Shown here: positions 4,853 to 60,445 of the stretch, one piece after another | How the letters are laid out: each line of letters begins with the position of its first letter | Numbering within the stretch: position 1 is the stretch's first letter | Origin: a virus | Virus record (IMG/VR): IMGVR_UViG_3300009071_000007 | Length of the DNA stretch: 64,000 bases | Reading direction: 5' to 3' (one strand) | Program-made: the position numbers and the translations under genes | Notes under the pieces: model-generated | Told to the model about the DNA's origin: nothing | What the model saw: the letters and a program-made list of their open reading frames with translations, nothing else | Database searches by the model: none

Positions 4853-4871
4853 TTTTTATACTTTTACAAGA

Positions 4872-40946: not shown

Positions 40947-43900
40947 GTAATAAGGGTACTATAAATCCCATTACAGGTCTTCCGCAACAAAACACTTTAA
41001 ACCCTATTACAGGGCTCCCGTTTACTACTGCAGAAGAGCTGGGTGCATTTCAAGCAAAAGTTAACCGCCAACGACCTCAAGTATCAGTAGCTCCTGGATT
41101 TGCTGCAACAACTGGGGACTTCTCTTCATATGCAGACAGAGGAGTAACACTTTCTGGGGGACCTAGCTACAAGGATTACTCTACTATAAGAGCCCTCAAT
41201 CAAAGCGCAGGAGAAAAATTGTTAATCGGGGCCAAAAAAGGAACCGTTACTGGAGCTAGCGCTTTTGTAAACGGATTGCTTGGTATGGCGGGCGCTCTTG
41301 ACTTTGCCGCTGGAAGTAATTTGAATCCTAAAAGCAGAGGATCTCTAGTTGGGACAGCTCAGGATTGGACAAATCTTGTTAATACTGAGGAGTGGCGGGA
41401 GAACTCTCGTAAAAACAATCCACACTATTACACAAAGACAGAGCTGGATAACATAGGAAACTTTAACCCATTCTCTGAAAACAACTCATTTACATGGAAC
41501 TTCCTTACTGACAAGATATTTGATGGTATAGGATTCTTAGTTGGGACAGCTGCATCAATATATGTTACAGCGGGTACAGGAGTTATTGGACGTGTTGGTC
41601 AGCTTGGGAATATAAGCAAGGGACTTGCAACGTGGAGAACTGCTAAAACTATAAAGAGTGGGCAGTCTTTGTCTAAGGCTCTTGGTACATACAGAACTAC
41701 TAAAAACGTAGCAAGTAAGATATACAACGGTGCTGCTAAGACCGAAGCAGCTTTCTTATCTGCAGTAGGGGAAGCATCTATTGAAGGAAAGGAAACAGGT
41801 AAACAAGTGTATGAAAAGCTATATGCAGAAGCTCTGAGAAAGAAGACTGCAATGGGTTTACCTGCACAGCTTTCTGCACAAGAAGTGCAACAGCTTAAGT
41901 TACAAGCATTAGAAGCAGAGGGTGCTGCTTTTTATTCAAACGTGGGAGTACTGAGCTTGAGTAACTCTATAATGTTTAGGGGTCTGTTCAAACAGTTTGG
42001 AAAAGCAGCAGGAACATCTAGATGGCTAAGAGCTGCAACAGCAGCAGAGAGAGCTGCAAAACCATCACTGCGTGTTGTAGACAAACTCAGTGGACTTCCA
42101 GGTTATGGTATTCGACAAACTGCACAAGCAGCAAGATTTTCAGCCCCCTTCTTAAAAACAATGGCGGCTGAAGGATCAGAAGAAGCTGCACAGTATGCAA
42201 TTACTGAGGGGATGATTGAGTACGAGATGGCAAAGATGCATGACTCCGGATTGGGGGATATAGTAGAAAGTCTTATTGACACAAATAAGCTCCGAATTGC
42301 AGCAGAGTCATCTCCTGAGGTTGCAAGTAAAATGCTTGAGACATTTAGTAACCCAGAAGCGCGAGAACAATTTGTCATTGGATCTATTGTTGGTATTCTG
42401 GGTGGGGGAATACAAGGCTACAAGGAATCAAAGGCAAGCAGAAAACAAAGAGATGAGCAGGCAACTTTGCTTAACAACGAAGGTATGTTCCGAGCAGCAA
42501 GAGGAGCAGAGTCTGTAAACAAGCAGTCCTTTTTCTTGCAGAGAATGAATGAAGCAGAGCAAGCAGGAGACAGGGAGCAATTTGAATACTATCAAAGAAG
42601 ACTGCAGGCAGAACAAATACTGCAGCATTATAATAAAGGAAGCTTAGACTTGTTCAGAGAGATGCTGGAAGACTCAAAAAGTCTCCCGGAGAATGAGTTC
42701 AAAGAGCTTTATGGAATCAGCCCAGAGACAGTTATAGACCAGAATAAACTGGTAGATGATATTGTATCTAGATCCAAAGAGATAGAGAAGTCTGCAGAAA
42801 TGATAGACGAACTCTACACAAGCTCCCCAACTGTTGGAGCAGGTAAGCTGTTCATGTCAAAAGAAGAGAAGGAGCTAGAGAAAAATAATCTTCAAGATGA
42901 AGCTATTTATAAAAACTATTTAAAGCTAGAGCTAGGGTCGCTAAAGTTTATTGATGGGGCAATCTCAGAGAAAGTAGATAAAATTGAGGAGATGTTCCCA
43001 GGCCTCTTGACAGATGTGCTTGTTACACAGACATACAAGAAAGGAAAAGAGGCAGACTATGAAGAGGGTACACGTACTAAGTCTGTTAATATGCGTGATC
43101 GTATACGCAACTATGTAAGAAACAGATTTGGGGAGGTGGCTCTAGAAGAAGGCAAATTCAGTTTAGATGTACAGCAAAATCTAGAAAAGAATCTAAACAC
43201 CATTCTAGCGAATAATCAAGAACACACAGAGTTCGAGACTGTCAGAAAAGAATTGGTAGAGCTTAGGGAGCTTATTAGTCAAAGGGGTAATGCAGTCACT
43301 GCATACAATAACCTCAACAGAAGCCCGGAGCTGCGAGACCTTGCAATATCTGGAACAAAGATTGCATTGGAGCGGGAAGCACAAACAAAGAGAGATGCAC
43401 TTGTTGATCAAATTATTGCAGATACTGTAACACCTGAACAACTAAAAGCAAAAGCGGATAGAATTCTGCAACAAGGGAGCATCTCAGAAGAAGCTAGAAA
43501 AAGAGCCAACGACGAAATAGCTGCAAGAACAAAAACCAGATCAGATGCTCAACAGAAATGGGACACTATGTCCAGACCCGCAGTTGAAAATCTTGAAGGA
43601 CTAAGCCCACTGCTAGACTCGTACAGAGAACAATATCTTAAGGACAGATCTCAAGAGGCCCCAATAAGAGATACTACTGTTGAGCAGAAGAGAAAAGCTG
43701 ATGAGGCAGCAGAAATAATAAAGAGACGAAAACAAGAGGGAGCACGACTTGCGGCTGAAAACCGCAAAACAGGAGAGCAATCTGCACCTGGACAACAGCC
43801 GACGGAGAAGGAACAAAAAGGATTGCAAAGGAGGATTGACAGGAGTAAAAAGGATTTTGCTGCCGCTACAAGTCTTGAAGAAAAAGCTAAAGCCCTTCTT

Positions 43901-46900
43901 AGGTACCTTAATAGCGTCTCTAACTCCAAGGGTATTGCAAGTGAAGAGGATGCGGCTTGGTACGAAGCGAGTAAAGCTGAGCTAGAAGCTGAGGGATTTG
44001 TATTTGATGATATAGGTGATGAACTAAATAGCGATGAGCGAGATGAGCGAATTGGAGCGCCTTTTGACATCCGCACCGAAGAAACTAGCGATGCTGTTCC
44101 TAAAGGGAAAATAATTATAAAGGCTGTAGTCAAACCAAGGCGGGTGGTAGACGGGAAGACAGTCAGCCGACCTACCTACGACGTAATTAGAGGAACAGGA
44201 ACAACGGCTGCAAGGGATGCCTTAGTTGCTGAAGTATATGCTTTGGAGGATGAAATAACTACAGATAATTTTAATGAAATATCTCCTAAGCTAAAAGCCG
44301 CAAGAAAGGCTTTGAAGGATTACGATGATGCTAATTTCCCTTCATCTAAATCTGTTGCCGCCCCTAAGAAAGCAGCCCCTGAGAAAGTCGCAGATCAGGG
44401 CACCGCATCAACAAAGAAAGATGCATTGTTTACAACACACAGTGAAAGCCTGAACAATGAGGTAGTTAAAGATGCACAAGGAAGAGTAGTTGTTTCTTCT
44501 GACGGAGTACCCATGGATAGTGGACTGGACTCAGAAAGAACAGTAAATGGGGAGCCTATTATTACTGATCGTAGCTTGCTTGATAGTGATAAAGTAGTAG
44601 CAGGAACGACGCTTGTACTGGAGGTTATAGAGGATGATTGGTGGCTTGGTAACAAAGGTAAGACTCAATATAGAAATGCCGCTGCACATATACCTATATA
44701 TGTAAAGCTCCCATCCGGAGAAGTACTCGGTGTGCTTACTGCTAATGACAGTGCTATGCGTCGTGCTGCCTACCAAGAATATCTGAAGGGCGCACAGGGA
44801 CAACAAGTTACTGTAGCAGTTGCTAAGAAGTATCTTAATAACAGAAACAATGCTGTTGTAGAACTGCAAGACGGTACTACAGGCACGTTCCTATCCAGAG
44901 TAGATGAGGTGTTTGGGAACACTCCTCTTGGTGTTGTTACCTACGCAAAGAACCTGAGCAAAAAAGGTTTGACCGTAGCTAATACACAAGGTCTCACGCA
45001 AGAAGACCTTGATGCTATTGCAGAGCTGTCTAACGAGGTGACTAGTGATAAAGTAAGATACGGTCAGGTAGTTGCACTGCACAAAGACTCAAACGGAAAG
45101 TGGAAGTATAGCTTACTACAGACGGCAAGACTTACTGAAGCAGAGCAAGAAGAAGCATTTAATCTGTTACTTGACTCTTCTCCGGAATCGTACCAGAAAC
45201 TGGTCGATGAGGTTGGTTTGAATACACTAAGCCCAGCAGAAGTTGGGGAAGTATCTGTTACATATCTGCAAGTAGAAAAAGACTACATGCGGAATGCGGA
45301 CAAGAGAGTGATAAGATTCGCAGTTCCTACACGCTCAGTAAAATCTGAGATGGCAAGAGCTGACTTAGAGAATGGGATGTTTGTAGTTGCATTAGACAAC
45401 CGAACACTTACAAATCTTGCAGACCCAAGTACAGCAGAAGCTACGGCTAAAGCAATACTCAACGGTAAGAAAGGAACAACAGAAGCTGGAATACTTGGTA
45501 ACCTTATACAGAAACTTGTTGAGAATGAGGATGGCTTTATAAATACAAAAGGAGCAGGTTTCCAGATTATAAAAGAGGACATGAGCAAAGAAGAAGCTCT
45601 TGCTTTTATAATGTCGTTGCCCGATGCTGTAAAAAGAACCTTAAAGAATAAGAGAAAGCAGGTAGATATTAACAGACTTAATGCTGACCCATCATACTAT
45701 AATACTCTTGTAGAAGAGACAAGAGAAGACCCGCTCCCACTACAAACGGTCTTTGGGCACCGTGGTGTTATTATGACTGACGTTGTTCTGCATAATGGCT
45801 CTATGTACAATGGTATTGGTCTTGAGTTTGACTTGTCCCAGCTTAAGATTGGGAACAAAAAACCAAAGGCAAACAACATAAAAGTATCTCGTCCTATATC
45901 AACAGCAGAAACTAATGATGCACAAGCATTGTTTGATGAAGCAGCAAAAGCTCGAGAACAAGAAGTAGGAGAACAAGAATACGATCCCACTCAAGTTACT
46001 GATGATGATATAGCAGAAGCAGAAAAAGCAACCCGGAAGAGGCTTCTCGCTATACTTGCTGAAAGACGCAAGAAAAAAGGCCAACAGGAAACGGGAACAG
46101 GAACGGAGACAGAAACGAAAACGGATCCAGAGGAAGAGAAGCTGAAGGGCATGGACTTAGAGGATGACGCATTTAGACTGTCTGCTAATAAGGGTAAGCG
46201 CTTGAATAAAGCTCAAGCTATTGCTTGGTTGAAGCAGCGAAACATCCCAGTAGAGTTTTATGAGATTGCAAAGCAGGTAGGTAGTAAAGTTGCACACGGC
46301 TATATGAAGAATGCTGCTGTGTATCTGTGGAACAACGCAGAAGTTGGGACTGAATACCACGAAGCATTCCACTATGTATTCCGCACATCTCTAAGCGAGA
46401 AGCAAAGAGAGGGATTGTACAAAGAAGCTAGAAAGCGGTTTAATCTCCCCAATGCTACAGAGCTTGAGCTTGAAGAGGCAATGGCAGAGGAGTTCCGTAA
46501 TTACGTATTTACTGCACAAGAGACCGGGAAGACTCTTCCTGGGAAGATCCGCAAGTTCTTCAACGATTTGTGGAACTTCATTAAGGCCCTGTTTGTAAAT
46601 CCTGTAGGCGTAGAGCAGTTCTATTCTTTGATCGAATCAAACAAGGTTCCAAATAAATATGAAAGAAGCGCTGAGAAGTTTGCAACCAAGGGCGAGGTAT
46701 ACAGATTGGTGAGTGACTTGGGGAATGACTATGAGATGCAACAACAAGTCCTTGACGTTATCTCTATGCAGTTCGTTGATACATATAACGAAAGCAATCA
46801 GATGTTGCAGGGAATGTCTCAACTAGAGGGCACAGGAAAAAACAACAAGGTTCTTGCAACTGCACTCCTTGGAACAACAGAACAAGACAAGGGAATTATT

Positions 46901-49900
46901 GCAGATTGGTTCTTGCAGCACTCTTTCTCAACAGAAACTGATGGGTACATGAGTGATGAGGCAATGGAGGCAATTAAAAATGCAAAGAGCTCAGAAGAAA
47001 TAAAGAACGCTGTAAAGAAATACAAGCTTCAACGAAAACCCCCTCTGCAGGCATTTATAGAAGGTGAACTTCCTACTACTGTATTTAATAAAGAGGAGAA
47101 GACCCAGCGAAACACAGCGATTATTTTCTACAATGTATGGAAAAACTGGTTTGACGTTACAGATGAGCTAGGTAACATTGAACAATACGGGTGGAGAGAT
47201 GCAGCAGCTGCAGATCTTCTTAAGTATGGGTTCACTATTCAGACTAGAGTTGCTACACGTACTGCACTGGAGCAAGAGGAAGAAGGGTCTCCTGAACAGG
47301 AGGAGGTGAACTTCGACAAGATCTATGACATTTCTCACTTTGAACAAGACCCACTCAAAGTGGCATCTAAAGAAGTGAGAAACCTGCTGTCTAGAATCGT
47401 GGACACAACGCCTAACGTATTCGGGATACCTACTTATATAGACGTTGAGGCTACCCTTAGAAAAACAATTGCAGTTACTGCGGGCGCTAAAGGGTATTCA
47501 GAGATACTGGGTAGAATACAAGAGGCTGCTCGTATAGAAGAGATAGAAGCACAAAAGACAGATAGAAAAAGTCTGATACTTGGCCCACTTAAGGACTATC
47601 TTAATGGGACTCCTACAGCACAAGAGGTTGCGGCACTTACCCGCTTCTTAACTAAGACATACTCAGAGCTTAGAATTGTACAAGAAAATCAGATCGAGAC
47701 TACTGACGGTGGAGTAGAGATGTCTGTACAGACTATCAACTCTGACAGAAAGAGTGCAGTTATTAACTGGCAAGACACTTGGAAGAACGACGGACTTCAA
47801 ACGCTTTCAGTCCCAAGACCCGGAGCAGTATTTACAGAGACTGAAGATGGGGGTATTGCCTTTAACAACAACATAACTGAGGGTCAAAATAGAATAGACC
47901 TGCTTAAAGAGGCATTCCTCAACTACGATAGAGAGAACACAGTTGAAGGTAAGGCTACACAGCTAGGTAAAATAATGTGGAACCTTTCTTTGGGTATGGG
48001 CAGTACTGAGCAAGAGGCTACAGATCGCCTCATGTCTTACGTGCTAAAGAATACTACTCTAGACAACAATGAAATATCCAAGATATTTAAGAAGGTAATT
48101 TACTTGGCCAACCAAGCAGTAGACTTTAAGGTAGAGGGCGGAAGAGTAAAAGACGTGATGCTTAAGAAGGGCAAGGTTAGAAACTTCTTTGTATCAGAGG
48201 GATCTACAGTAAAGGAGCTTGCTAATATTGCTGCAGAATACAGTGTCCCAGTTGCAATAGCATATGTAAACGGGAAGGGAAAGACTATCTATCCATACAA
48301 CCTCCCCACACCATTCACTGATTTGATAGAAGATCTCAAACAAAATGCAGCTTCAAATAAGTATGCATTCTTGCAAGGAGATGAGTCTTTCACAGCAATG
48401 AACACTGAGCACAAAGCAATGCTCATGACCTTGATTGCAAATCCAGAATTTGAAATATCCAGCTGGGCACTTGATACTATCAACAATGAGGCATCAGATG
48501 ACGCTAACATAGAGTACAAGAAAATGTCCGAACGAGACTCTCTGATACTCAAACTCAATATGTTTGTAAACCAAGGGTCAGCTATAAAGTATGGATGGAT
48601 ACCTGTTTCAACTCAGGAGACTAGAGGCAGATTGGACTTTGTTAAGTTCCCTAAGATAGAAGAGAAGAACTTCGCAGCTGTAGAAGCAGCAGGCTTGCAA
48701 CGAGAAAGCTTTAGTGGAAGACTCAAGAGTGTTGTCATACGTGACTTGGTTCGACTTAGCAATAACCCACGTGTAGCTGAAAACTACAACAACGGCTTTC
48801 ACTTAACGGGCATAGTCAATACTAAACTAGGTAGTGGCCTTTTGATGTCTGAAACTGTAAAGGACTATCTACAAAACCCAAAGGGTAAAGAATATCAGGA
48901 CTTCAATAAGGAGCTTGACAGACAGGTAAAAGAATACGTAAACACTGTATTCAAACGAAATAGAGAGAACCTCCGCAACGAGCTCTTGCGATACAACATC
49001 ATACGATTGGTTGAAGGCAAGCCAGAGTTCTTGGAGAAGTCCAAGCTTGACTCGTCAGTTCAGAAATACGGGGGAGTAAATAGATTCCTCAATAACTATA
49101 TGATGACAGACATGCTAGCTCGCATTGAGATGGCAGAGATGTTACGTGGTGGTGTTGTACAATTTGAGAACTTAACCAAGTTCTACAAAAGAATGGGTCT
49201 TATACAAACTCCCGGAGATAAGCTTATGCAGAAGGGAGAGTTTGAAGCTGATCCAGATTACGGAATGGCCCCAACAATTGTGGAGGCCTCTATAGAGAAA
49301 ATGCAAAACCAAGAGCCCTTTCATAACGAGGCAGCCGACAATCTTCGAGACCTTTCACTAGCTCCTTTCTATGAAAAGACTATGAAGATGTCTAAAGAGG
49401 AGGCACTTAAAAAAGCAGAAAGCATAGCAAAACAGTACAGAAACGATTTTGGTGACCATACAGATGCCCAAGCATTTGCTTCAGATCTCTTCTACAAAAT
49501 GTATAAGCAGGGTAAAGGACAGTGGACATCAGAAGATGACGTGTGGTTTGATGAATATCTGAACAAAAAAGGAGAATGGAAAGGGGATAAATACATAGAG
49601 CCTATAAAGCCATTTGTAAACAATCAGGTTATGGAGAATGGGGCGTCTATATCTGATATGCAGAAGAACTCACTCTTGGTTGTTACGCGACCACTAGCAG
49701 AAATGAACACAGTTCTGGCGGCTATGTATCTTAGAATGAACAAAGCGGGGGACAACATACACATAATAAATACGGAGTCTGCAAAGAAGGGTGCGAAGGG
49801 TCAGGAGTTTGCTGTAAATCAAGAACTTGGAGCGACCATGTTTGAAGGACTTGAAGGAACAGAGATGAGCACAGATGGGTTGTACATACCACAAACTATA

Positions 49901-50110
49901 AGTGACAAAAGAGCTGAGACAGCTAAGATGAATCGTCAGATTCGTAAGGTGCTCCCAACTATGGTTAAGGCAGATGGAGAGTATGATGTAAAAGGAGCAA
50001 AGTCCCCAATGTCAGGAAAAGAGGTTAGTGATAGATATCAAACCTTGCATGAAGAAATCCTTGACGCGCAAGCAAAAAGCTTTTCAAAGAGCTTGGGTGG
50101 GACGAGTTGA
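40943..50110 (+). CDS. 3055-aa polyvalent virion protein with an HEAFH zincin-like motif; probable N-terminal part (or partner subunit) of a virion RNA polymerase
   Basis: 9.2-kb uninterrupted ORF. The N-terminus has a tandem NPITGLP motif and hydrophobic Gly-rich segments. Long coiled coils are present. HEAFH lies at 46358-46372, with a downstream acidic helix EEAMAEEF. The ORF ends at TGA 50108-50110, overlapping the next ORF in the -1 frame. Confidence 0.85.
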   Translation: MSNKGTINPITGLPQQNTLNPITGLPFTTAEELGAFQAKVNRQRPQVSVAPGFAATTGDFSSYADRGVTLSGGPSYKDYSTIRALNQSAGEKLLIGAKKGTVTGASAFVNGLLGMAGALDFAAGSNLNPKSRGSLVGTAQDWTNLVNTEEWRENSRKNNPHYYTKTELDNIGNFNPFSENNSFTWNFLTDKIFDGIGFLVGTAASIYVTAGTGVIGRVGQLGNISKGLATWRTAKTIKSGQSLSKALGTYRTTKNVASKIYNGAAKTEAAFLSAVGEASIEGKETGKQVYEKLYAEALRKKTAMGLPAQLSAQEVQQLKLQALEAEGAAFYSNVGVLSLSNSIMFRGLFKQFGKAAGTSRWLRAATAAERAAKPSLRVVDKLSGLPGYGIRQTAQAARFSAPFLKTMAAEGSEEAAQYAITEGMIEYEMAKMHDSGLGDIVESLIDTNKLRIAAESSPEVASKMLETFSNPEAREQFVIGSIVGILGGGIQGYKESKASRKQRDEQATLLNNEGMFRAARGAESVNKQSFFLQRMNEAEQAGDREQFEYYQRRLQAEQILQHYNKGSLDLFREMLEDSKSLPENEFKELYGISPETVIDQNKLVDDIVSRSKEIEKSAEMIDELYTSSPTVGAGKLFMSKEEKELEKNNLQDEAIYKNYLKLELGSLKFIDGAISEKVDKIEEMFPGLLTDVLVTQTYKKGKEADYEEGTRTKSVNMRDRIRNYVRNRFGEVALEEGKFSLDVQQNLEKNLNTILANNQEHTEFETVRKELVELRELISQRGNAVTAYNNLNRSPELRDLAISGTKIALEREAQTKRDALVDQIIADTVTPEQLKAKADRILQQGSISEEARKRANDEIAARTKTRSDAQQKWDTMSRPAVENLEGLSPLLDSYREQYLKDRSQEAPIRDTTVEQKRKADEAAEIIKRRKQEGARLAAENRKTGEQSAPGQQPTEKEQKGLQRRIDRSKKDFAAATSLEEKAKALLRYLNSVSNSKGIASEEDAAWYEASKAELEAEGFVFDDIGDELNSDERDERIGAPFDIRTEETSDAVPKGKIIIKAVVKPRRVVDGKTVSRPTYDVIRGTGTTAARDALVAEVYALEDEITTDNFNEISPKLKAARKALKDYDDANFPSSKSVAAPKKAAPEKVADQGTASTKKDALFTTHSESLNNEVVKDAQGRVVVSSDGVPMDSGLDSERTVNGEPIITDRSLLDSDKVVAGTTLVLEVIEDDWWLGNKGKTQYRNAAAHIPIYVKLPSGEVLGVLTANDSAMRRAAYQEYLKGAQGQQVTVAVAKKYLNNRNNAVVELQDGTTGTFLSRVDEVFGNTPLGVVTYAKNLSKKGLTVANTQGLTQEDLDAIAELSNEVTSDKVRYGQVVALHKDSNGKWKYSLLQTARLTEAEQEEAFNLLLDSSPESYQKLVDEVGLNTLSPAEVGEVSVTYLQVEKDYMRNADKRVIRFAVPTRSVKSEMARADLENGMFVVALDNRTLTNLADPSTAEATAKAILNGKKGTTEAGILGNLIQKLVENEDGFINTKGAGFQIIKEDMSKEEALAFIMSLPDAVKRTLKNKRKQVDINRLNADPSYYNTLVEETREDPLPLQTVFGHRGVIMTDVVLHNGSMYNGIGLEFDLSQLKIGNKKPKANNIKVSRPISTAETNDAQALFDEAAKAREQEVGEQEYDPTQVTDDDIAEAEKATRKRLLAILAERRKKKGQQETGTGTETETKTDPEEEKLKGMDLEDDAFRLSANKGKRLNKAQAIAWLKQRNIPVEFYEIAKQVGSKVAHGYMKNAAVYLWNNAEVGTEYHEAFHYVFRTSLSEKQREGLYKEARKRFNLPNATELELEEAMAEEFRNYVFTAQETGKTLPGKIRKFFNDLWNFIKALFVNPVGVEQFYSLIESNKVPNKYERSAEKFATKGEVYRLVSDLGNDYEMQQQVLDVISMQFVDTYNESNQMLQGMSQLEGTGKNNKVLATALLGTTEQDKGIIADWFLQHSFSTETDGYMSDEAMEAIKNAKSSEEIKNAVKKYKLQRKPPLQAFIEGELPTTVFNKEEKTQRNTAIIFYNVWKNWFDVTDELGNIEQYGWRDAAAADLLKYGFTIQTRVATRTALEQEEEGSPEQEEVNFDKIYDISHFEQDPLKVASKEVRNLLSRIVDTTPNVFGIPTYIDVEATLRKTIAVTAGAKGYSEILGRIQEAARIEEIEAQKTDRKSLILGPLKDYLNGTPTAQEVAALTRFLTKTYSELRIVQENQIETTDGGVEMSVQTINSDRKSAVINWQDTWKNDGLQTLSVPRPGAVFTETEDGGIAFNNNITEGQNRIDLLKEAFLNYDRENTVEGKATQLGKIMWNLSLGMGSTEQEATDRLMSYVLKNTTLDNNEISKIFKKVIYLANQAVDFKVEGGRVKDVMLKKGKVRNFFVSEGSTVKELANIAAEYSVPVAIAYVNGKGKTIYPYNLPTPFTDLIEDLKQNAASNKYAFLQGDESFTAMNTEHKAMLMTLIANPEFEISSWALDTINNEASDDANIEYKKMSERDSLILKLNMFVNQGSAIKYGWIPVSTQETRGRLDFVKFPKIEEKNFAAVEAAGLQRESFSGRLKSVVIRDLVRLSNNPRVAENYNNGFHLTGIVNTKLGSGLLMSETVKDYLQNPKGKEYQDFNKELDRQVKEYVNTVFKRNRENLRNELLRYNIIRLVEGKPEFLEKSKLDSSVQKYGGVNRFLNNYMMTDMLARIEMAEMLRGGVVQFENLTKFYKRMGLIQTPGDKLMQKGEFEADPDYGMAPTIVEASIEKMQNQEPFHNEAADNLRDLSLAPFYEKTMKMSKEEALKKAESIAKQYRNDFGDHTDAQAFASDLFYKMYKQGKGQWTSEDDVWFDEYLNKKGEWKGDKYIEPIKPFVNNQVMENGASISDMQKNSLLVVTRPLAEMNTVLAAMYLRMNKAGDNIHIINTESAKKGAKGQEFAVNQELGATMFEGLEGTEMSTDGLYIPQTISDKRAETAKMNRQIRKVLPTMVKADGEYDVKGAKSPMSGKEVSDRYQTLHEEILDAQAKSFSKSLGGTS

Positions 50111-52854
50111 AAAAGAATCCAGGTAACAAAGAAGCACGACTTAAATTCCTGCAGAGAGTGAAAAGCGTTATTATGGATAACGCAATGAAGAATAACAAGC
50201 TTGACTCTAACTTAGATAAACAACTTAGGATCGTAGAGGACATGGTAAATAACACCGTGGACTTTAATGTCCCAACATATATGCCTGTTTATCAGCGGCA
50301 GTTACAGAACCAAATCTTCTCTCTGTTTAGATCCAATGTGTACCAGGTTAAGCTACCAGGACGTGACCTTGTACAAGCAAACTCTGGAGGTAAGTGGAAG
50401 ATTGGGGATGAGATAAGAGAGCTTAGACATATACATATAGATGAAAAAGGGAATACAGTGGCGGCAGAGATAATGATATCTGAAGACCTGGCAGAAATGC
50501 ATGGTATAGAGGTTGGGGATCGCATTATAATGTACCGTATCCCAAACCAGGACTACTCTTCAGCAGTCCCATCTCAAGTTGCTGGTATCCTTCCTCGAGG
50601 ATACTCAAAGACAGTTATGGTGGCAGGTGGTATTACAATTCAAACAGGATCTGACTTCGATATTGATAAACTATTTAACCTGTTTGAGAACAAGGATCCC
50701 AAGAATAGACTGGATAGGTTAAAGAATGAGCTGTTTAATATCTCCTATTCTATATTAATGAATAAGGAAACAGCACCCTACCTGTTTGCCCCACTTAATC
50801 AGGATACACTAAACGATCTAGCCGACAATCCTGAAATTGCAAAAGAAGAAGTCAGAGATTTTGATGACCCACTTGTAGAAATCAAGATGGAGTCTAACTA
50901 TAAAAGTGCTGCAACACTTGTGGGTGGGTATGCTAATGCTATTGCAGGTATGAGCATTGCTAATGTTGCATCTCAGTTCGAGAATGAAGAATACGTACAG
51001 AACGGTATAGCAGTAAATGCATCTAAGAAATTCATACTAAATGACACAGCACTTGGTCTGATATCTACTAGGTCAGAGATGACAAACGAAAGAAATATTG
51101 CTGGAATCGTAGAGAGACTTTCTGCAGCGCTAGATGCTGGTAGTAAATTAATCCACAGTACGCTTAACGATAATGATATTACTCTCAACGCTACAGTGTA
51201 TCTTAAGAGTATAGGATTTGGGGACCGAGATGTAGTGGCATTAATGACGACCCCCCTTGTTAGGGAGTTTGTTGAAAGTAAAAGAGACAACAGAAACAAG
51301 AGTAACCAGAGAGTATTCCAAGATTTAGGAATTAATAGAAAGACCTACAGCAAAATTGCAAGCTTTGATAGCAGCATACTGCCCCCAGCTTTAAATACTG
51401 AGGAACTTGAAAGAGTTTCTAAAGAGGGGAATAGAAAAGATCCGGTTGCAAAAGAAGCATTGTACGCATTTGCGCATGCACTTGTAGCAGGTAACAGCTT
51501 GTCAGACTTCTACAGAGTCATTGCTGCAGATAACCTGGATGGGATGGGGGACCTTGCTGAGATTGAGGCATACCTGGATGTGCTAGATAACTACAAGAGA
51601 AGCGGTAACAGAAACATCGTTGGTTACTCAGAGGTGGAGAAGATACTTAAGGGGGATGCATATAGAATTAGTAGAGCCTTCTTCAACATCATAGATGAGT
51701 CGATGCAGATATCATCGGAGCTGTTTATGAGCGGGACGAAGGGGGTTAGAGAGTTTAAACAGTTGCTGAAGGATGTTGCTGGAAAGCAAACTATGACTGC
51801 TGCAGAGCACAGATTTGTAGACAGAGCATTGTTCTACCACATCTTTACTAAGGAGGGTTCTCCGATAGGATCATTGATGCAGAAGTCTGTAGTAAAGTCG
51901 ATGCTTCTTGATCCTAAAAACAACTTGTACAAACAAGTGAAAGACCTGATCGAGGAGATTCCAGCATTGAGAAGTAACTCTATGATTGCGTCTATTAAAG
52001 AGGGACCTAAATACAATGATCCTACTACAAGAGTGTTTGGAATAAGCATAGAGAACACGGAGAAAATGTCACTCAGAGCAAGAGAAACCCAACGTCAGTC
52101 GTTTGGAGATCTATTGTACAGACCGGAGAAATACACTAGTGACCCACAAGAACAGAAGAAGATCCAGAATATGGGTAAGAGACTGGTACTCAACTCAATC
52201 GTAACAACCGGACTTGCACCTTCTTATGGTACATACTACGACGCCATCCCAATAGACTTCTTTATGGAGATAGCTGACGAGAGTGGGAAGACCTTGATGC
52301 AGTACTTGCGAGAAGAATTCCAGAATGTCAAGAATGACGAGAGATACTTTGACGATTTCATGTTCAGCTTTATGCAGAACTACGGTGCCGCTACTGTAGC
52401 ATCTGCACCACTTGTTGGACGAATGCCACGTTCGTATGTGCAACGCGGTGAAGGACTGTACGGATTGCCTGCATCAGTAGAACTAGATGGTCGTCCGGCG
52501 CGATATGTAACAAGAGCTAATTACAGTAAGGGTGTAGATAAGATGTCAGTGTATGAGTATAACAACACAGATGAGATGTATCACCTAATACAGAGCACGA
52601 GTATAACTAATAAGATTATCGAGCTCAACCTCAGAGACAGAAATGGGGATATTGTAACTAGCAGTTTCTTTGCTGAAAGCCAAGGAGAAAGAAAAGTAAG
52701 GATGGCAGGTAAAGGTAAAGGAAAAGATAAAGTTGTAGATTTACATTCTAGAGCTGGAATTACAAAGACTATGTCTGATCCTATGACTATGAACGAGGAG
52801 ACAAGAAGAATCAGAACTACAGACAGCTCTTCAGATATATCACATGTTTGCTAA
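50107..52854 (+). CDS. beta-prime-like double-psi beta-barrel RNA polymerase catalytic module (915 aa as an ORF; likely fused to or partnered with ORF 40943)
   Basis: SLFRSNVYQVKLPGRDLV .. VGDRIIMYRIPNQ .. VMVAGGITIQTGSDFDIDKLF parallels RpoC [20 protein letters not shown] .. [11 protein letters not shown] .. [18 protein letters not shown]. DFDID lies at 50653-50667. The track start is a TTG. The first ATG is at 50173, and the frame is open back to 50065. Confidence 0.7.
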   Translation: MKKNPGNKEARLKFLQRVKSVIMDNAMKNNKLDSNLDKQLRIVEDMVNNTVDFNVPTYMPVYQRQLQNQIFSLFRSNVYQVKLPGRDLVQANSGGKWKIGDEIRELRHIHIDEKGNTVAAEIMISEDLAEMHGIEVGDRIIMYRIPNQDYSSAVPSQVAGILPRGYSKTVMVAGGITIQTGSDFDIDKLFNLFENKDPKNRLDRLKNELFNISYSILMNKETAPYLFAPLNQDTLNDLADNPEIAKEEVRDFDDPLVEIKMESNYKSAATLVGGYANAIAGMSIANVASQFENEEYVQNGIAVNASKKFILNDTALGLISTRSEMTNERNIAGIVERLSAALDAGSKLIHSTLNDNDITLNATVYLKSIGFGDRDVVALMTTPLVREFVESKRDNRNKSNQRVFQDLGINRKTYSKIASFDSSILPPALNTEELERVSKEGNRKDPVAKEALYAFAHALVAGNSLSDFYRVIAADNLDGMGDLAEIEAYLDVLDNYKRSGNRNIVGYSEVEKILKGDAYRISRAFFNIIDESMQISSELFMSGTKGVREFKQLLKDVAGKQTMTAAEHRFVDRALFYHIFTKEGSPIGSLMQKSVVKSMLLDPKNNLYKQVKDLIEEIPALRSNSMIASIKEGPKYNDPTTRVFGISIENTEKMSLRARETQRQSFGDLLYRPEKYTSDPQEQKKIQNMGKRLVLNSIVTTGLAPSYGTYYDAIPIDFFMEIADESGKTLMQYLREEFQNVKNDERYFDDFMFSFMQNYGAATVASAPLVGRMPRSYVQRGEGLYGLPASVELDGRPARYVTRANYSKGVDKMSVYEYNNTDEMYHLIQSTSITNKIIELNLRDRNGDIVTSSFFAESQGERKVRMAGKGKGKDKVVDLHSRAGITKTMSDPMTMNEETRRIRTTDSSSDISHVC

Positions 52855-52865
52855 ATAAAGAATAA

Positions 52866-55800
52866 ATGAGTTGCAGATTTAAAGTCGGAGGTATAGATAA
52901 CCCATTGCTTTCAGACGTTATGTTCTACGTAGAGGATACTGCTGCAGAAGCAAGAGATCCATACAAAATAAAGCAGATGCTGGACGGCAAGATAGCCGTC
53001 TTAGATGGGGATACTCTTTACTTGCGAGATGATGTAATGGATGCAAGAAAAGAAATAGGTTACATCAACGCAGCAGCCCAAGACTTTTTTGGGGCATACA
53101 CAAATCTGATTACTGAGACTCGAGAAGGGAAGAACGTAAGGCTGGATATAGACCCTGAAGTATTGGAGGTTATGTTTAGAAATACTTCAGTGCAGTTTAC
53201 TATGTCTGAAGACACAGACATTGAGGCTGAAGGTGAAGATCTGACGCAAGACCCACTAGTAGACGAGGTATTTAATGTACAAGAAAGGGTAGATAATACA
53301 ACAGAAAAGCTCTTAACAAATGTGGAGCTTCAGATAGGGAGACTCGAGCGCTTAGAGCAGAAGGAGAAGACTAAGCAGAAGCTACGAGAGCTGGAGCTGT
53401 TAAAAGCAAACCTAAAGAAAATAAAGCAGGGACAGGAGAAGATATCTGACTATGCTGAATACATAGACTATGTCTTCGCACTAGCACAGAGAGCTGAGAA
53501 GTTGTACGATAGAATACAACAAGAGTATGCAGTTAGCTATAAAACAATGCCCAATGAGGATAAAGCTAACATACTTAAAAACATCTCAGACCTGCAGCAG
53601 ACTATACAAGCATTCTACAATAAGGACAAAAAGAAGTCCGCTCTTACTATTCTCAAAAACAAACTAGATACTCTAGCGGATACTGAAGGTTTAAAAGATG
53701 ACCTACTGCAAGACGTACGAGATACTATAAAAAGAATGGATGCTCTAGATGATAGGTACTTAGCTGTAGCTATCCCAATACAAGCAAGATTGCTTCTGTC
53801 ATTTGCTCCTATAGGTGTTAATCAAAAAATAGATGCAGACATAGAGTTTCTAGAAAAGGCGTTGGAGGAAAATAATCTTAACATCCCATTCCGAGGACTA
53901 GAGAGAAACAATAAACAATACGAAGCAATAGCTATGGAACGTAACCTTCGATCTGGTTACGGGTTACTTGACAGCAGACAAGCAAAGCAAAATAGACAAC
54001 GACGTCTGATAGAGCTAAATATCAAGCAGCTTAAAGAAAAACGTATTGGGCCAGCTCGTATCATAAAAGAGTTGAGAGAAACACACCAGGATGCATCCGG
54101 GTTCTCACTTTACACAGATCCTTTGGTTTACAGCTCGGATATTACACTCAGTTTGTTTTCAAGTGCAATCAAAACAGGCCTACTTGAAGGCCACAGAAGC
54201 ACCATAGATACTAAGTTTAAACTGCGTGATGCTTTCTACAAGTTTAGAGATGCAAGTACTGCGTCAGAAAGAAACCCGGCAGAAATGTTTAAGGATATGC
54301 TAGAGGTAGTTTCTGTGTATCGTAAAAACAAGAAAACACAGAAGGTAGAGAAGACTAATATCTTGAGTATTGTACAGCCTTTTGATATAGCTAGCTACAA
54401 CGAGAAGCAGAATACAATGTTTGAGCTTGCAAAAGAAGAATACGGCTACCCAGAGGATGTCTCAGAACTTGATGACTTCTTTAGAAGTAAAGAGGGAAGA
54501 CTATACAACCAAACAGTTGCGGAGTGGTATTCAAAAAATGGAAGACCGATAGACGGAGCTCAGGACATAATTGATGACATGCTTAATAAGCGGGATAAGA
54601 TACTACTCGCACGAAATAAAGCGTACAAAGAGGGTAGGGACTTTGAAGCAAGGGAGCTGTCTTATCAGTACAATGCGCTGGACCTTGAGATAAAGAAAGT
54701 ATACCGACGAGGAAAAGGGGGATGGGTAATTACAGGTAGCCTAACACAACCTAATGATAGCTACATTAACCCTAAGTTTACGAACATGCCCGCAGCAACA
54801 AGAGAGTTCTACGACGTGTTTATGGAGGTGTATAAAGAGCACCAAGCTAAACTTGGGAGACGCCCAATGGTTCAGAACTCCTGGGACAATTTTTCTTACA
54901 TGGCTCCTGCTATACTAAAGGATGCCATAGACTCTTTCAAAGAAAAGAAGTTTAAGGAGGGTGCCCAAAACGCAATTGGGGATGTGTTTACACAGAATGA
55001 AACCGATACAGAGTTTGGGGAACTCATCGATGCAAATGGGGAGAAGTTAAGAGTAATCCCCAAATACTTTACGAATACAGTAGAGGAGTCTAAGATCTCC
55101 AGAGACATAGTAAACAGTCTAGTCAAATTTGTTGACATGGCTAACCGCTATGAAGCCACAGCTAAAATGGCTGGAGTAGTTAATGTGATGCATGACTCTA
55201 TTAGAGATCGTACTGTTAAAGAACTGTCTGCTACAGGTATCCCAATAGTAGATAAGACTGCACAGCGACTAGGATTTGGAATAGAAAAAGAGGGACTTGG
55301 AAAAGATAGTCGAGACTTTGAGCATCTTAAAAACTTCATAGATAATGTAATCTATGGAGAGAGCATGAGAAAGCAGGAAACTGATAAAATCTTAGGATTC
55401 TCAAAGACAAAGCTTTACGGTAAAGCCGCGTCACTTACTGCACTATCAAGACTTGGATTTAACGGGCTGCAAGCTACTAACCAGTTGATAATAGACTCTA
55501 TATCAAATGGATCTGAAGGCTGGGCAAGACAGTTCTACAGCAAGGGAAGTCACTTCAAGGCACAGACAATAGTTAACCTCGCTCTGTCTGATCTTGGGAC
55601 AAGTGTAAGCGAGGCAATCTCACCTAAGTTTGTTAAACAAAGTAAGCTAAATCAAATGGCTGAAATGTTTGATGTCTTCCAGGAAATGGGTAGAACAGAG
55701 GATGTTACTGGGAGTGCTGTAAGAAAAGCCACTAACCTAAACTCCGTGTTTATTTTGCAAAGAATCCCGGAATGGCAAACAACTATGACGAAGATGGTGG

Positions 55801-56738
55801 CCCTTGCTCTAGAACAAAAAGGGTTCAAAGATAAGAATGGGAACATCATCAAAAATAAAGAGGGGGAAGAGGCAAATCTTTGGGATATATTAGAAAAGGA
55901 TTCAAAAGGTCAGTTAAAAGTTAGATCTGATGTTGCAAACTTTGGGAACAAAGAGATGGGTATGTTTGCCGCCAAAGTATCCGGGATGGTAAAGAGAACC
56001 AACCAGTTGAAGGGGAGCTTTGATAAGACTCTTATAGAGAGACAGGGGGCTTTGTCATTAGTAGCTCTGTTCCGCAAGTTCTTGAATCCTGCATACAGAA
56101 AAAGAATGGGTCACAGAAGTGGGGGATACCACATCGACGTAGAGCTAGGAGATATAACAGAAGGGTACTACACTACATATTATAATGCTATCACAGCAGC
56201 GGTACGTGGATTTAAAAATGACCCAATAGACTCTCTAAAACTCCTGGTTGGGAAAAGCAAGAATCAAAATGAATTGCAGAGACAAAACATTCGCAGAATT
56301 TTGCATGAGCAATTCTACATTACAATGACCGGAATGATAACACTGATTCTAAATGGTATGATGGACGATGATGATGAGTATGATAACTGGTACACACACA
56401 TGGCAATCTACCAGATGAATAGACTTCAAACAGAACTCAAAGCATTTAGAAGCGTAAATGAATTTGGGAGAATAATAGAGTCCCCCACTGCAGCTGCTAA
56501 CCTAGTTAAGGATGCATCCCAGCTTATTACAGCTACAAACAACTTAGCCGGATACTATATGGGTTGGCCAACAATAGAAGAAAAGGATGTCTTCTATCAA
56601 CGACGGTCTGGTAAATACGAGAGGGGAGATCTTAAGTGGGTTAAGGAACTAGAAGATATACTCCCAGTAATAAGCGGTATTGTAAAGACCGGGGACCCAG
56701 AAGAAGCTAACAAATATTTCATCCTTAGTAATAAATAA
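52866..56738 (+). CDS. giant virion cargo-protein candidate (1290 aa)
   Basis: This uninterrupted ORF is the last gene of the plus-strand arm. It has coiled-coil-rich regions and a hydrophobic segment (FYITMTGMITLILNGMM). No enzymatic motif recognised. Confidence 0.85.
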   Translation: MSCRFKVGGIDNPLLSDVMFYVEDTAAEARDPYKIKQMLDGKIAVLDGDTLYLRDDVMDARKEIGYINAAAQDFFGAYTNLITETREGKNVRLDIDPEVLEVMFRNTSVQFTMSEDTDIEAEGEDLTQDPLVDEVFNVQERVDNTTEKLLTNVELQIGRLERLEQKEKTKQKLRELELLKANLKKIKQGQEKISDYAEYIDYVFALAQRAEKLYDRIQQEYAVSYKTMPNEDKANILKNISDLQQTIQAFYNKDKKKSALTILKNKLDTLADTEGLKDDLLQDVRDTIKRMDALDDRYLAVAIPIQARLLLSFAPIGVNQKIDADIEFLEKALEENNLNIPFRGLERNNKQYEAIAMERNLRSGYGLLDSRQAKQNRQRRLIELNIKQLKEKRIGPARIIKELRETHQDASGFSLYTDPLVYSSDITLSLFSSAIKTGLLEGHRSTIDTKFKLRDAFYKFRDASTASERNPAEMFKDMLEVVSVYRKNKKTQKVEKTNILSIVQPFDIASYNEKQNTMFELAKEEYGYPEDVSELDDFFRSKEGRLYNQTVAEWYSKNGRPIDGAQDIIDDMLNKRDKILLARNKAYKEGRDFEARELSYQYNALDLEIKKVYRRGKGGWVITGSLTQPNDSYINPKFTNMPAATREFYDVFMEVYKEHQAKLGRRPMVQNSWDNFSYMAPAILKDAIDSFKEKKFKEGAQNAIGDVFTQNETDTEFGELIDANGEKLRVIPKYFTNTVEESKISRDIVNSLVKFVDMANRYEATAKMAGVVNVMHDSIRDRTVKELSATGIPIVDKTAQRLGFGIEKEGLGKDSRDFEHLKNFIDNVIYGESMRKQETDKILGFSKTKLYGKAASLTALSRLGFNGLQATNQLIIDSISNGSEGWARQFYSKGSHFKAQTIVNLALSDLGTSVSEAISPKFVKQSKLNQMAEMFDVFQEMGRTEDVTGSAVRKATNLNSVFILQRIPEWQTTMTKMVALALEQKGFKDKNGNIIKNKEGEEANLWDILEKDSKGQLKVRSDVANFGNKEMGMFAAKVSGMVKRTNQLKGSFDKTLIERQGALSLVALFRKFLNPAYRKRMGHRSGGYHIDVELGDITEGYYTTYYNAITAAVRGFKNDPIDSLKLLVGKSKNQNELQRQNIRRILHEQFYITMTGMITLILNGMMDDDDEYDNWYTHMAIYQMNRLQTELKAFRSVNEFGRIIESPTAAANLVKDASQLITATNNLAGYYMGWPTIEEKDVFYQRRSGKYERGDLKWVKELEDILPVISGIVKTGDPEEANKYFILSNK

Positions 56739-56779: not shown

Positions 56780-57118
56780 CTATTGTTTCTCTCTGTTGAC
56801 AGCAACCATAAACAGTGTAAGATATCCCATGAGATCCATGAGGGTATCTTCACTATCACCATCAACACCTAAAGTTTTGAAGCGACGAAGTTTGTGCTCT
56901 ATCTGTCCCTCCAATAACTGGAGAGATGATAGATTACAAAACAAGTTCACATCAGAGAGTGCACTGTTTCCGTAAGATCTGTTCTTCTCTGCAAGCAGGG
57001 ACTTTAACTTATCTAATACAGCGTGTGCCTCTTTAATTGTAGGATGTACAGGCTCTATGTCATCAGTACTAGTAGCCACGTAATCATGTTCCCAAAACTT
57101 TTGGTTATTCATTGTCAT
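56780..57118 (-). CDS. DUF1599-like (nucleotide-modification-associated / MazG-like all-alpha NTP-pyrophosphohydrolase fold) protein
   Basis: 112 aa. LLAEKNRSYGNSAL..GQIEHKLRRFKTL..EDTLMDLMGYLTLF follows the K-x-x-DYG..DK..R..D..DL.nY pattern I recall for DUF1599. Assignment is from memory. Confidence 0.45.
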   Translation of the reverse strand: MTMNNQKFWEHDYVATSTDDIEPVHPTIKEAHAVLDKLKSLLAEKNRSYGNSALSDVNLFCNLSSLQLLEGQIEHKLRRFKTLGVDGDSEDTLMDLMGYLTLFMVAVNREKQ

Positions 57119-59324: not shown

Positions 59325-59325
59325 A

Positions 59326-60435: not shown

Positions 60436-60445
60436 ATTATTTTTG

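Follow-up and report, generated by a model that had tools for sequence, protein, structure and literature searches.

A virion RNA polymerase (RNAP), carried by all crAss-like phages, is a defining and already characterized hallmark of the Crassvirales (Drobysheva et al., preprint 10.1101/2020.03.07.982082; Yutin et al., PMC7886860). For gp66 of Cellulophaga phage phi14:2, packaging, ejection, and Mg-dependent, DNA-templated RNA synthesis, assayed on denatured phage DNA and lost when Asp is replaced by Ala, have been demonstrated, and the same work gives DFD[I/V]D, with Ile or Val rather than Gly at position 4, as the motif criterion for crAss-like phages (preprint 10.1101/2020.03.07.982082). 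In phi14:2, gp66 is a separate protein of 2180 aa whose gene follows the structural genes and adjoins those for gp67, a virion structural or cargo protein, and gp65, which carries an HExxH motif and, like its orthologues, has been proposed to be a zincin-like metallopeptidase. In certain phages, these three proteins are joined as one polyprotein (preprint 10.1101/2020.03.07.982082). In addition, gp47, gp49, and gp50 have been detected in the virions of crAss001 (PMC10172136).

Virion genes and the layout of the polyprotein

The window, by which we mean the whole 64,000-nt stretch of DNA that was analyzed, is DNA of a podophage that is crAss-like (Crassvirales-type) and divergent. It encodes TerL, portal, and MCP, with a TerL that is ~42% identical to those of gut crassviruses in GenBank, and its closest relatives are uncultured metagenome contigs. 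A search of the 64,000-nt window found no tRNAs, which leaves no sign of reassigned stop codons. Its genes follow the standard genetic code, whereas 65 in-frame stops are met in the crassvirus cr114_1 when table 11 is applied.

At the end of the structural module lies a giant virion polyprotein gene (40943..52854, + strand), which in the sequence as it stands consists of ORF A (40943-50110; 3055 aa) and ORF B (50107-52854; 915 aa). When one A is added to the run at 50074-50078, the two become a single ORF of 3970 aa, the length that the preliminary description had estimated for the fused product. Each of its nearest cluster representatives is one protein, 3692-4105 aa in length, in which the B-like part is C-terminal, and cr114_1 and the nearest metagenomic representatives, like the fused window gene, encode single products of ~3700-4300 aa. 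Immediately downstream, ORF C (52866..56738, + strand) encodes an RNAP-associated cargo protein that is homologous to crAss001 gp49 (phmmer E=1.8e-36) and phi14:2 gp65 (E=1.8e-13). The gene order is the same as the g067-g066-g065 order of phi14:2, with the polymerase flanked by gp67-like and gp65/gp49-like cargo. Searches of Pfam and PHROGs returned no match for ORFs A, B, and C, and phmmer against PDB sequences returned none for ORF A or ORF C.

The polymerase occupies the C-terminal ~2000 residues of the ~3970-residue polyprotein. From the N terminus onward, the product comprises a gp67-like region, a zincin-like module, a beta-like barrel, a Connector, the barrel carrying DFDID, a bridge helix, a trigger loop, and a C-terminal region. 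The first of these (40994..41611, + strand) resembles the N terminus of phi14:2 gp67 in a weak profile match. Two features of this arrangement differ from phi14:2: the RNAP of the window is fused to gp67-like N-terminal ~1700 residues, and the HExxH motif stands directly N-terminal of the polymerase rather than within gp65.

The putative zincin-like module (46187..46594, + strand) bears out the earlier claim that the polymerase module belongs to a far larger product that carries a zincin motif. It contains HEAFH at ORF A residues 1806-1810 (nt 46358-46372), followed by a Glu-Glu pair at residues 1844-1845 (nt 46472-46477). Of 153 family proteins, 71 also have an HExxH motif at a distance of 1300-1750 aa upstream of DFDxD, where the module has the consensus GTeYHEafH...lEE.mAe.F, and the H, E, H, E, and E of HEAFH plus E1844/E1845 are invariant in alignments of 26-36 sequences. 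In the AF2 model (pLDDT 73-88), strands at 81-107 precede an HExxH helix at 114-127 and an EE helix at 151-172; the model thus predicts what is expected of a zincin, namely, an HExxH helix after a beta-sheet with a Glu downstream as third ligand. Pfam searches with this segment from the window and nine relatives gave only noise, and Foldseek against the PDB with a 711-aa model of the region found nothing at E<=0.001, which is a weak test given a multi-domain model with a pTM of 0.48. Our analysis documents a fused gp67-like, zincin-like, and RNAP architecture with a sharply conserved HExxH...EE. The placement of this motif immediately N-terminal to the polymerase lends support to processing of the cargo polyprotein by a protease of its own, a task that the zincin-like module may perform. 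By homology to gp66, the polymerase would travel as capsid cargo, enter the host on ejection either before the DNA or with it, and then transcribe early phage genes.

The polymerase core and its catalytic barrel

The segment at nt 50326-50670, which corresponds to residues 74-188 of ORF B, very probably encodes the beta'-like catalytic barrel of a crAss-like virion RNAP, that is, a single-chain, two-barrel, DNA-dependent enzyme homologous to phi14:2 gp66 and crAss001 gp50. Translation of the window places SLFRSNVYQVKLPGRDLV at residues 74-91, YRIP at residues 143-146, and GSDFDIDKLF at residues 181-190 (GSDFDIDK at 181-188), exactly as quoted when the segment was first described as an FRxN..GRxxV strand region, an R-x-P turn, and a metal-chelating DFDxD loop. 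The beta'-type double-psi beta-barrel proposed at that time extends over 50350..50685 (+ strand; ORF B residues ~82-193) in a reading that draws on translation, phmmer, family alignment, AF2, and Foldseek. The metal-binding motif itself (50653..50667, + strand) contributes D183, D185, and D187 and is the same as 1361-DFDID-1365 of gp66, by homology to which this Asp triad would chelate the catalytic Mg2+ where the two barrels meet. When 39 family sequences were aligned, YRIP kept its Arg and Pro throughout, and neither the three Asp nor the next Lys varied, such that the invariant columns around the motif are R, P, G, D, D, D, and K. Of the 128 motif-bearing family representatives, 62 have V and 60 have I at position 4 (I/V in 122/128), and the DFDID at ORF B residues 183-187 conforms to the DFD[I/V]D of crAss-like virion RNAPs.

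The resemblance to gp66 far exceeds what chance would produce. When ORF B was compared by phmmer with all PDB sequences, the phi14:2 virion RNAP (6VR4_A) was the sole significant match (E=1.1e-13). The two proteins are identical over TGSDFDIDK and share 49% identity over the 57 residues surrounding the motif, and a second colinear block aligns ORF B 199-280 with gp66 1470-1555, reaching the bridge helix. A family profile built from 8 polyproteins matched gp66 by hmmsearch in a single domain (gp66 500-1661) that crosses the junction of ORFs A and B (E=1.2e-42), and matched crAss001 gp50 at E=5e-46 over residues 294-2135. Identity to gp66 over the aligned core is ~20% (190/965 profile columns). 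Pairwise similarity of ORF A to gp66 is weak (E=0.0016-0.035), and the predicted RNAP identity of this ORF comes from the family profile and the AF2 model. The family is large. An exhaustive HMMER search recovered 1064 cluster representatives at E<=1e-3, 117 of them at E<=1e-30, and tblastn against 50,697 phage records matched 59, nearly all of them named crAss-like phages or hosts of such phages and many annotated as "putative RNA polymerase". A word-prefiltered homologue search returned two proteins and then one; such a prefilter is insensitive for the gp66 family, which comprises >1000 clusters by HMMER.

The predicted structure agrees with the sequence comparison. The AF2 model of fused residues 2400-3460 has a pLDDT of 84 and a pTM of 0.83, and its top Foldseek match in the PDB was 6vr4_A (E=2e-35, TMq 0.73, 1233 columns). 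In BFVD there were 60 matches at E<=1e-3, and the named ones among those listed were all giant proteins of crAss-like or related uncultured phages. The profile searches and structural modeling proposed in the preliminary description thus both converge on gp66, the protein that it had singled out as a parallel and which proved to be the best match in sequence and in structure alike.

Alignment with gp66, together with the model, allows the parts of the enzyme to be assigned. The two-barrel core (48161..51282, + strand; fused residues 2407-3447) aligns with gp66 497-1661 by profile, AF2, and Foldseek; gp66 is colinear with the window throughout this range and has the same GSDFDIDK loop, with Ile at position 4. 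The predicted beta-like, or first, double-psi beta-barrel (49604..49963, + strand; fused residues ~2888-3007) lies at the end of ORF A. We inferred its limits from its place directly before the Connector, as mapped from gp66, and from a strand-rich segment of the AF2 model. The family-invariant residues K2889, K2908, K2949, and Q2999 fall inside this barrel in the family alignment, while the invariant K2749/R2750 and D2841 are upstream of it and outside. The Connector equivalent (49874..50370, + strand; fused residues 2978-3143) corresponds to gp66 1095-1238, with limits taken from preprint 10.1101/2020.03.07.982082 and mapped from gp66, and it contains the frame break discussed below. Farther downstream, the predicted bridge helix (50875..50970, + strand; ORF B ~257-288, gp66 1529-1559) is a long helix in the model, H913-944, and the trigger-loop equivalent mapped from gp66 (51091..51207, + strand; ORF B ~329-367, gp66 1598-1636) has the conserved block LSAALDAG.K...LND/N. 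The model accordingly has all of the parts that define the gp66 fold, namely, two double-psi barrels, a Connector, a bridge helix, and a trigger loop.

Taken together, the tool-free reading of raw sequence recognized a crassvirus hallmark enzyme in a lineage whose TerL has ~42% identity to that of any GenBank phage. The enzyme is a divergent and well-modeled addition to the family of two-barrel virion RNAPs. As a polymerase of an already known type, it leaves the current understanding of crAss-like transcription unaltered.

The frame break in the Connector

As sequenced, the two barrels are encoded by two ORFs that overlap and differ in frame. The break occurs at a run of five A residues (GCAAAAAGC; 50074..50078, + strand), near the equivalent of gp66 residue 1158 and inside the Connector between the barrels. 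It is found in the window copy, unlike phi14:2 gp66. Seven relatives span the site, among them contigs 90-99% identical to the window, and every one of them is continuous there in one frame. Four related contigs have six A residues at the site (GCA AAA AAG), a fifth, L005, has AAAGAAG (GCAAAGAAG), the additional base is also present in a noisy and near-identical assembly, and one frame runs straight across the junction in a homologue of 41% identity. With six A residues, or after a shift between the frames, the product reads ...LDAQAKKLFKELGWDELK at the junction. Compared with Illumina-type relatives over ~8.5 kb, the A5 site is the only uncompensated frame-breaking indel in the polyprotein. 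The earlier statement that the product is split over two reading frames therefore holds for the window as sequenced, where there are indeed two ORFs, and not for the family, of which seven members are continuous.

Judged from these alignments, the split is a 1-nt contraction of the A-run that is peculiar to the window sequence and not a trait of the gene family. Most likely, the loss of the A is a homopolymer miscall, or else a minority or defective variant that was caught by the assembly, as opposed to the normal structure of the gene. Since the ORFs elsewhere in the window are long and intact and the ~8.5 kb compared contain no further frame-breaking indel, a real mutation and a sequencing error are about equally plausible. 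For purposes of annotation, ORFs 40943-50110 and 50107-52854 are best merged into one gene whose homopolymer is suspect.

It is unlikely that the A5 allele is genuine in a viable phage, in which case the polymerase would either consist of two chains split in the Connector or reach full length through low-level -1 slippage on A-AAA-A. Under the first of these alternatives, the deletion would be tolerated and the chains would assemble like cellular beta and beta'. The chain from ORF A would run from the gp67-like part through the zincin-like module and beta-like barrel into half of the Connector. The chain from ORF B, starting at TTG 50107 (TTGA, overlapping the TGA stop) or at ATG 50173, would take in the remaining Connector along with the DFDID barrel, bridge helix, and trigger loop. 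Such a cut would mirror the cellular division between beta and beta', since the Connector is topologically where cellular enzymes divide into two subunits. The overlap of TTG 50107 with the stop of ORF A and the lack of other frame errors in the rest of the window would also fit, as would the variation in RNAP ORF boundaries among crAss-like phages (Yutin et al., PMC7886860). Yet, we consider the two-chain arrangement improbable. None of the relatives, including those that are nearly identical to the window, has a stop or a start at the site, and homology in the frame of ORF B extends upstream of the TTG (KLFKELGWDE), a stretch that a true two-gene layout would lose or duplicate.

Even less credible is the second alternative, in which the A5 allele would be recoded to full length, either by -1 slippage of tRNA-Lys on A-AAA-A (GCA AAA AGC) or by a stuttering polymerase that adds an A. 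If it did occur, slippage would yield, in a fixed ratio, the full-length polymerase and a truncated product made up of the gp67-like part, zincin-like module, and first barrel. A -1 shift at the A-run restores AQAK|KLFKELGWDE without a gap, and the relatives with six A residues have the classic A_AAA_AAG heptamer in frame. However, the heptamer of the window, A AAA AGC, departs from the canonical X XXY YYZ, frameshifting is seen in no relative, and the AAAGAAG of L005 is not slippery. A run of five A residues is short for transcriptional slippage. No frameshift-stimulating RNA structure was found downstream of the A-run, where predicted folding was no better than that of shuffled sequences (z=-0.77), and a scan for promoters and terminators around the junction was uninformative. 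Programmed -1 frameshifting, for which one would look for a canonical heptamer, a stimulatory structure, and conservation of two frames, thus finds no support in the heptamer, the RNA fold, or the relatives, although frameshifts that lack an explanation are reported for the RNAP genes of crAss-like phages in the zeta group (PMC7886860).

Relationship to cellular and other viral polymerases

The preliminary description had aligned the catalytic segment by eye with RpoC. The catalytic motif is shared, in that ORF B and cellular RpoC/Rpb1 both have a metal-binding loop at the end of a double-psi barrel, an R-x-P, and three Asp. When the family profile was compared with E. coli RpoC by hhalign, a weak test with a single-sequence template, the best local match fell at NADFDGD and was nonsignificant (E=0.12, prob 0.5%); a residue-by-residue alignment with RpoC is therefore unproven. 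The same comparison with E. coli RpoB, also as a single-sequence template, found nothing. The tie to cellular RNAPs appears instead to be structural, through short and nonsignificant Foldseek matches of the modeled barrel to Rpb1 (60-64 columns, rmsd 2.2-2.8 A, prob 0.97-0.98, E>0.1). ORF B has Ile at position 4 (SDFDID), where cellular RpoC has Gly (NADFDGD), and it shows neither significant RpoC similarity nor a separate beta gene as a partner; unlike in multisubunit RNAPs, both barrels probably belong to one gene product without other subunits. That DFDID arose by chance, or marks the beta' subunit of a multisubunit RNAP of cellular or jumbo-phage (AR9/PhiKZ) type, is a reading with next to no probability, despite the shortness of DxDxD, the position of the RpoC match, and the presence of the AR9 and PhiKZ nvRNAPs and Rpb1 in the weak Foldseek list, as it is effectively refuted by phmmer to 6VR4, the profile match to gp66, and Foldseek to 6vr4_A (E-values of 1e-13 to 1e-42 for gp66, TM 0.73 to 6VR4), by the colinearity of both barrels on what is probably one product, and by the crAss-like genome context.

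Among other two-barrel enzymes, QDE-1 ranked second in the Foldseek search of the PDB (7y7t_A, E=4.8e-4, prob 1.0), but with a TM of only 0.24-0.27. QDE-1 and the eukaryotic RDRs resemble the RNAP predicted for the window in being single-chain, two-barrel polymerases with a Connector, although their biology differs, consisting of RNAi-related RNA- and DNA-dependent synthesis in eukaryotes. Going by the model, the window enzyme would work as a two-barrel, single-chain RNAP outside the RDR family. Further Foldseek matches were weaker or nonsignificant and included RDR2, P32 gp64, the AR9 nvRNAP, designed DPBBs, and Rpb1, with the PhiKZ nvRNAP likewise among the weak ones. N4 vRNAP and P23-45 gp96 are giant polymerases that are carried in the virion and injected for transcription of early genes, as proposed here for the polymerase of the window. 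N4 vRNAP has a T7-like fold and is grouped with the single-subunit enzymes of T7 type rather than with the two-barrel ones (PMC13434306). P23-45 gp96, in which an RNAP is fused to the tape-measure protein, was a weak Foldseek match to our core model (E=4.8e-3).

Homology to crAss-like virion RNA polymerases

Our results support the view that the segment at 50326-50670 is a divergent new addition to a known, experimentally characterised family of RNA polymerases (RNAPs). The segment covers residues 74-188 of ORF B (50107-52854, + strand, 915 residues), which lies between ORF A upstream (40943-50110, + strand, 3055 residues) and ORF C downstream (52866-56738, + strand, 1290 residues). Translation of ORF B reproduced the residues quoted in the preliminary description, with SLFRSNVYQVKLPGRDLV at 74-91, YRIP at 143-146, and TGSDFDIDKLF at 180-190. 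That description had likened the product to the virion RNAP gp66 of Cellulophaga phage phi14:2, a reading that is borne out at the levels of sequence, profile, and predicted structure. Specifically, when all PDB sequences were searched with phmmer, the sole significant match to ORF B was gp66 itself (6VR4 chain A, E=1.1e-13), where residues 139-247 aligned to the catalytic-loop region with TGSDFDIDK identical, and a second colinear block extended toward the bridge helix. The core block was 49% identical to native gp66 over 57 residues. Similarly, a family profile built from 8 polyproteins matched gp66 as a single domain that crosses the A/B junction (gp66 500-1661, E=1.2e-42), crAss001 gp50 at residues 294-2135 (E=5e-46), and, weakly, the N-terminus of phi14:2 gp67 (residues 19-235, E=5.7e-4). 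With tblastn, ORF B matched 59 records among 50,697 phage genomes, nearly all of them either named crAss-like phages or their hosts, and 'putative RNA polymerase' is the annotation of many genes under the matches. Pfam and PHROGs returned no match in ORF A, B, or C. A word-indexed protein search found 2, then 1 homologues, and an exhaustive search found more than 1000 clusters for the polymerase family; the former failed to recover proteins that had themselves contributed segments to the query alignment, and its negatives are unreliable for fast-evolving phage proteins.

The predicted fold points in the same direction. An AlphaFold2 model of residues 2400-3460 of the fused polyprotein (ORFs A and B joined by one added A), made with a 39-sequence alignment, had a mean pLDDT of 84 and a pTM of 0.83. 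Among PDB structures, Foldseek matched the model to 6vr4_A (E=2e-35, query TM 0.73, 1233 columns) and to QDE-1 (7y7t_A, E=4.8e-4). Weaker or non-significant matches included P23-45 gp96, RDR2, P32 gp64, the non-virion RNAPs of AR9 and PhiKZ, and designed and VCP double-psi barrels; those to Rpb1 were short (60-64 columns, rmsd 2.2-2.8 A, E>0.1). In BFVD there were 60 matches at E<=1e-3, and every named one among those listed was a giant protein from a crAss-like phage or a related uncultured phage. Together, the profile and AlphaFold/Foldseek comparisons proposed in the preliminary description yielded a significant match to double-psi beta-barrel polymerases and a predicted two-barrel fold.

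The relationship to cellular RNAP is more distant. The by-eye alignment to RpoC (FRxN...GR, R-x-P) is structurally plausible, but it is unproven at the sequence level: with hhalign, the best local match of the family profile to E. coli RpoC was the NADFDGD region (RpoC 445-471, E=0.12), and nothing was found in E. coli RpoB. The catalytic motif's fourth position is Ile in the window, whereas the canonical motif has Gly; I or V occupies this position in 122 of 128 family representatives. The gp66 authors (gp66 preprint) describe I/V here as crAss-specific and incompatible with the canonical Gly conformation. In the 39-sequence alignment, the invariant residues of the second barrel are R3199 and P3201 (R-x-P), followed by G, D, D, D, and K of the catalytic loop, while those of the first barrel and the region preceding it are K2749, R2750, D2841, K2889, K2908, K2949, and Q2999. 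Using hmmalign and the domain limits in the gp66 preprint, we mapped the Connector (gp66 1095-1238) to fused residues 2978-3143, the bridge helix (gp66 1529-1559) to ORF B 254-284, and the trigger loop (gp66 1598-1636) to ORF B 329-367.

By analogy with crAss001, whose gp47, gp49, and gp50 are capsid cargo (PMC10172136), the polyprotein would be packed in the capsid, ejected into a Bacteroidota-type host, and possibly processed, and the polymerase would transcribe early genes, with DFDID as a putative Mg2+ site between the two barrels. We infer this mechanism as a whole by homology.

The frame break between ORFs A and B

ORF A stops at a TGA (50108-50110), and the frame of ORF B (-1) is open from 50065. 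Judged by alignment, this split is a 1-nt homopolymer contraction private to the window sequence, because relatives are continuous, there is a single frame-breaking indel, and one A restores the ORF. JGI contig L003 encodes a homologue (41% identity) in which the equivalent point is read through in one frame; the alignment follows window frame A to ...LDAQAK and then frame B from KLFKELGWDE, with no gap. The IMG/VR contig L005, 97% identical locally, carries GCAAAGAAGCTT in place of the window's GCAAAAAGCTT; its ORF is continuous for at least 2641 aa. Four more relatives from a pattern scan of metagenome contigs (L008-L011) all carry GCAAAAAAGCTT (A6, in frame), and the extra base is also present in L015, a noisy ENA assembly 96-99% identical to the window. 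Over the stretch of the polyprotein that the window has in common with the cleaner relatives, no uncompensated frame-breaking indel other than the A-run at 50074-50078 occurs in the window, and adding one A gives an ORF of 3970 residues. Furthermore, when 1.84 billion cluster representatives were searched exhaustively with HMMER, the nearest relatives were single proteins, 3692-4105 residues long, in which the B-like part is C-terminal. Thus, the larger product with a zincin motif that had been proposed stands; its division over two frames holds for the window as sequenced, but not for the gene family, whose members compared here are in one frame. This single-base break, which falls inside the Connector (gp66 ~1158 by hmmalign), is the only unusual point of the window itself.

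The missing base may reflect a sequencing error or a real variant. Because the window is otherwise clean, some probability stays with a genuine allele, whether defective, tolerated in the form of a split enzyme, or rescued by slippage. We regard all of these versions jointly as possible, perhaps, rather than probable, and the functionally interesting ones, taken together, as quite unlikely. Programmed frameshifting was unsupported at the window's A-run when the heptamer, downstream fold, and relatives were checked: the site A AAA AGC departs from the canonical slippery heptamer, the 92 nt lying downstream gave no sign of a stimulatory RNA structure, folding no better than shuffles (z=-0.77), and the two-frame arrangement occurs in no relative compared.

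Alongside the private contraction of the window, some relatives have features of their own in this gene. The A6 of L008-L011 (L008 1875-1883; window 50072-50082) forms a dnaX-type slippery heptamer, A_AAA_AAG, in zero frame. A slip there would reach a stop after 21 codons (-1) or 9 codons (+1), and either product would end in the Connector. The heptamer is not conserved, since L005 has the non-slippery AAAGAAG. In L015 (ENA ERZ10646685 contig_34981, 79.7 kb) about 20 additional runs of 1-2 nt, compared with the window, break the polyprotein gene into many ORFs. The contig has the look of an assembly from error-prone long reads, and gene calls on it, such as P0003 (1006 aa), are therefore artefactual fragments. 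The annotated 4272-aa RNAP polyprotein of CrAssphage cr114_1 (NC_055897.1 76247-89065) contains 65 in-frame stops under table 11, which indicates stop-codon reassignment. The window has no such in-frame stops and no tRNA genes.

Zincin-like module and genome context

The zincin-like motif HEAFH lies at ORF A residues 1806-1810, and 71 of 153 family proteins have HExxH at a distance of 1300-1750 residues upstream of DFDxD. In the consensus, GTeYHEafH.vFr...lEE.mAe.Fr.Y, the H, E, and H are invariant, as is a Glu-Glu pair 38 residues downstream. Stand-alone family polymerases of ~2400-2700 aa carry HExxH ~105 residues from the N-terminus, so the window's polymerase unit probably starts near residue 1700. 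An AlphaFold2 model of ORF A 1690-2400 (pLDDT 71.6) predicts a five-stranded sheet, then the HExxH helix, then a helix with the Glu pair, a topology that in the model is gluzincin-like; neither Pfam nor Foldseek gave a match for the module. In phi14:2, HExxH is in gp65, whereas in the window it is in the polyprotein. The gp66 authors (gp66 preprint) propose for the gp65 motif a role in activating the RNAP or digesting peptidoglycan; they also describe the three proteins as fused into one polyprotein in some phages. Two polyprotein segments are hypervariable: 43800-44385, where L010 and L011 have 372 nt against 585 nt in the window, and 45962-46173, just upstream of the zincin-like module, where several multiple-of-three indels cluster.

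The surrounding genes include a large terminase (2891-4852), portal protein (4809-7094), and major head protein (11398-12819), all assigned with PHROGs. Terminases of human-gut crassviruses share 41-43% identity with that of the window, and nothing is closer among GenBank phages. A 1488-aa virion protein (29687-34153; phrog_15100, E=2.5e-53) weakly resembles the crassvirus muzzle domain PF25729 at its C-terminus (E=4e-4, below cutoff), which fits a crAss-type tail. Transcription in phi14:2 runs from g067 (virion protein, 1797 aa) through g066 (RNAP, 2180 aa) to g065 (RNAP-associated, 1421 aa). Homologues of ORF C are gp65 (E=1.8e-13) and crAss001 gp49 (E=1.8e-36). Beyond ORF C, genes for replication and nucleotide metabolism follow on the opposite strand (56780-63211, minus), among them UDG-family (57105-57824), 5'-3' exonuclease (58560-59324), rIIB-like (59326-60435), and rIIA-like (60446-63211) genes, all on the minus strand. 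rII-like genes are not usually associated with crassviruses.

An insertion in the catalytic barrel of relatives

Three or four close relatives have an in-frame insertion of 612 nt (204 aa) within the catalytic barrel (L008 2214-2825; also L009, L010, and the start of L006). It is placed in the hairpin GGKWKIG^DEIRELRH, at a point equivalent to window nt 50409 to 50413. The window and L005 are without it. The insertion matches Pfam ART-PolyVal (an ADP-ribosyltransferase found in polyvalent proteins) below the 31.2 cutoff, with E=1.3e-4 and 23.2 bits, and has a YHGS...Y...E pattern. Similar segments occur in the family proteins P0133 and P0128, and the cr116_1 RNAP protein is labelled 'ART-PolyVal-like domain-containing' in UniProt.
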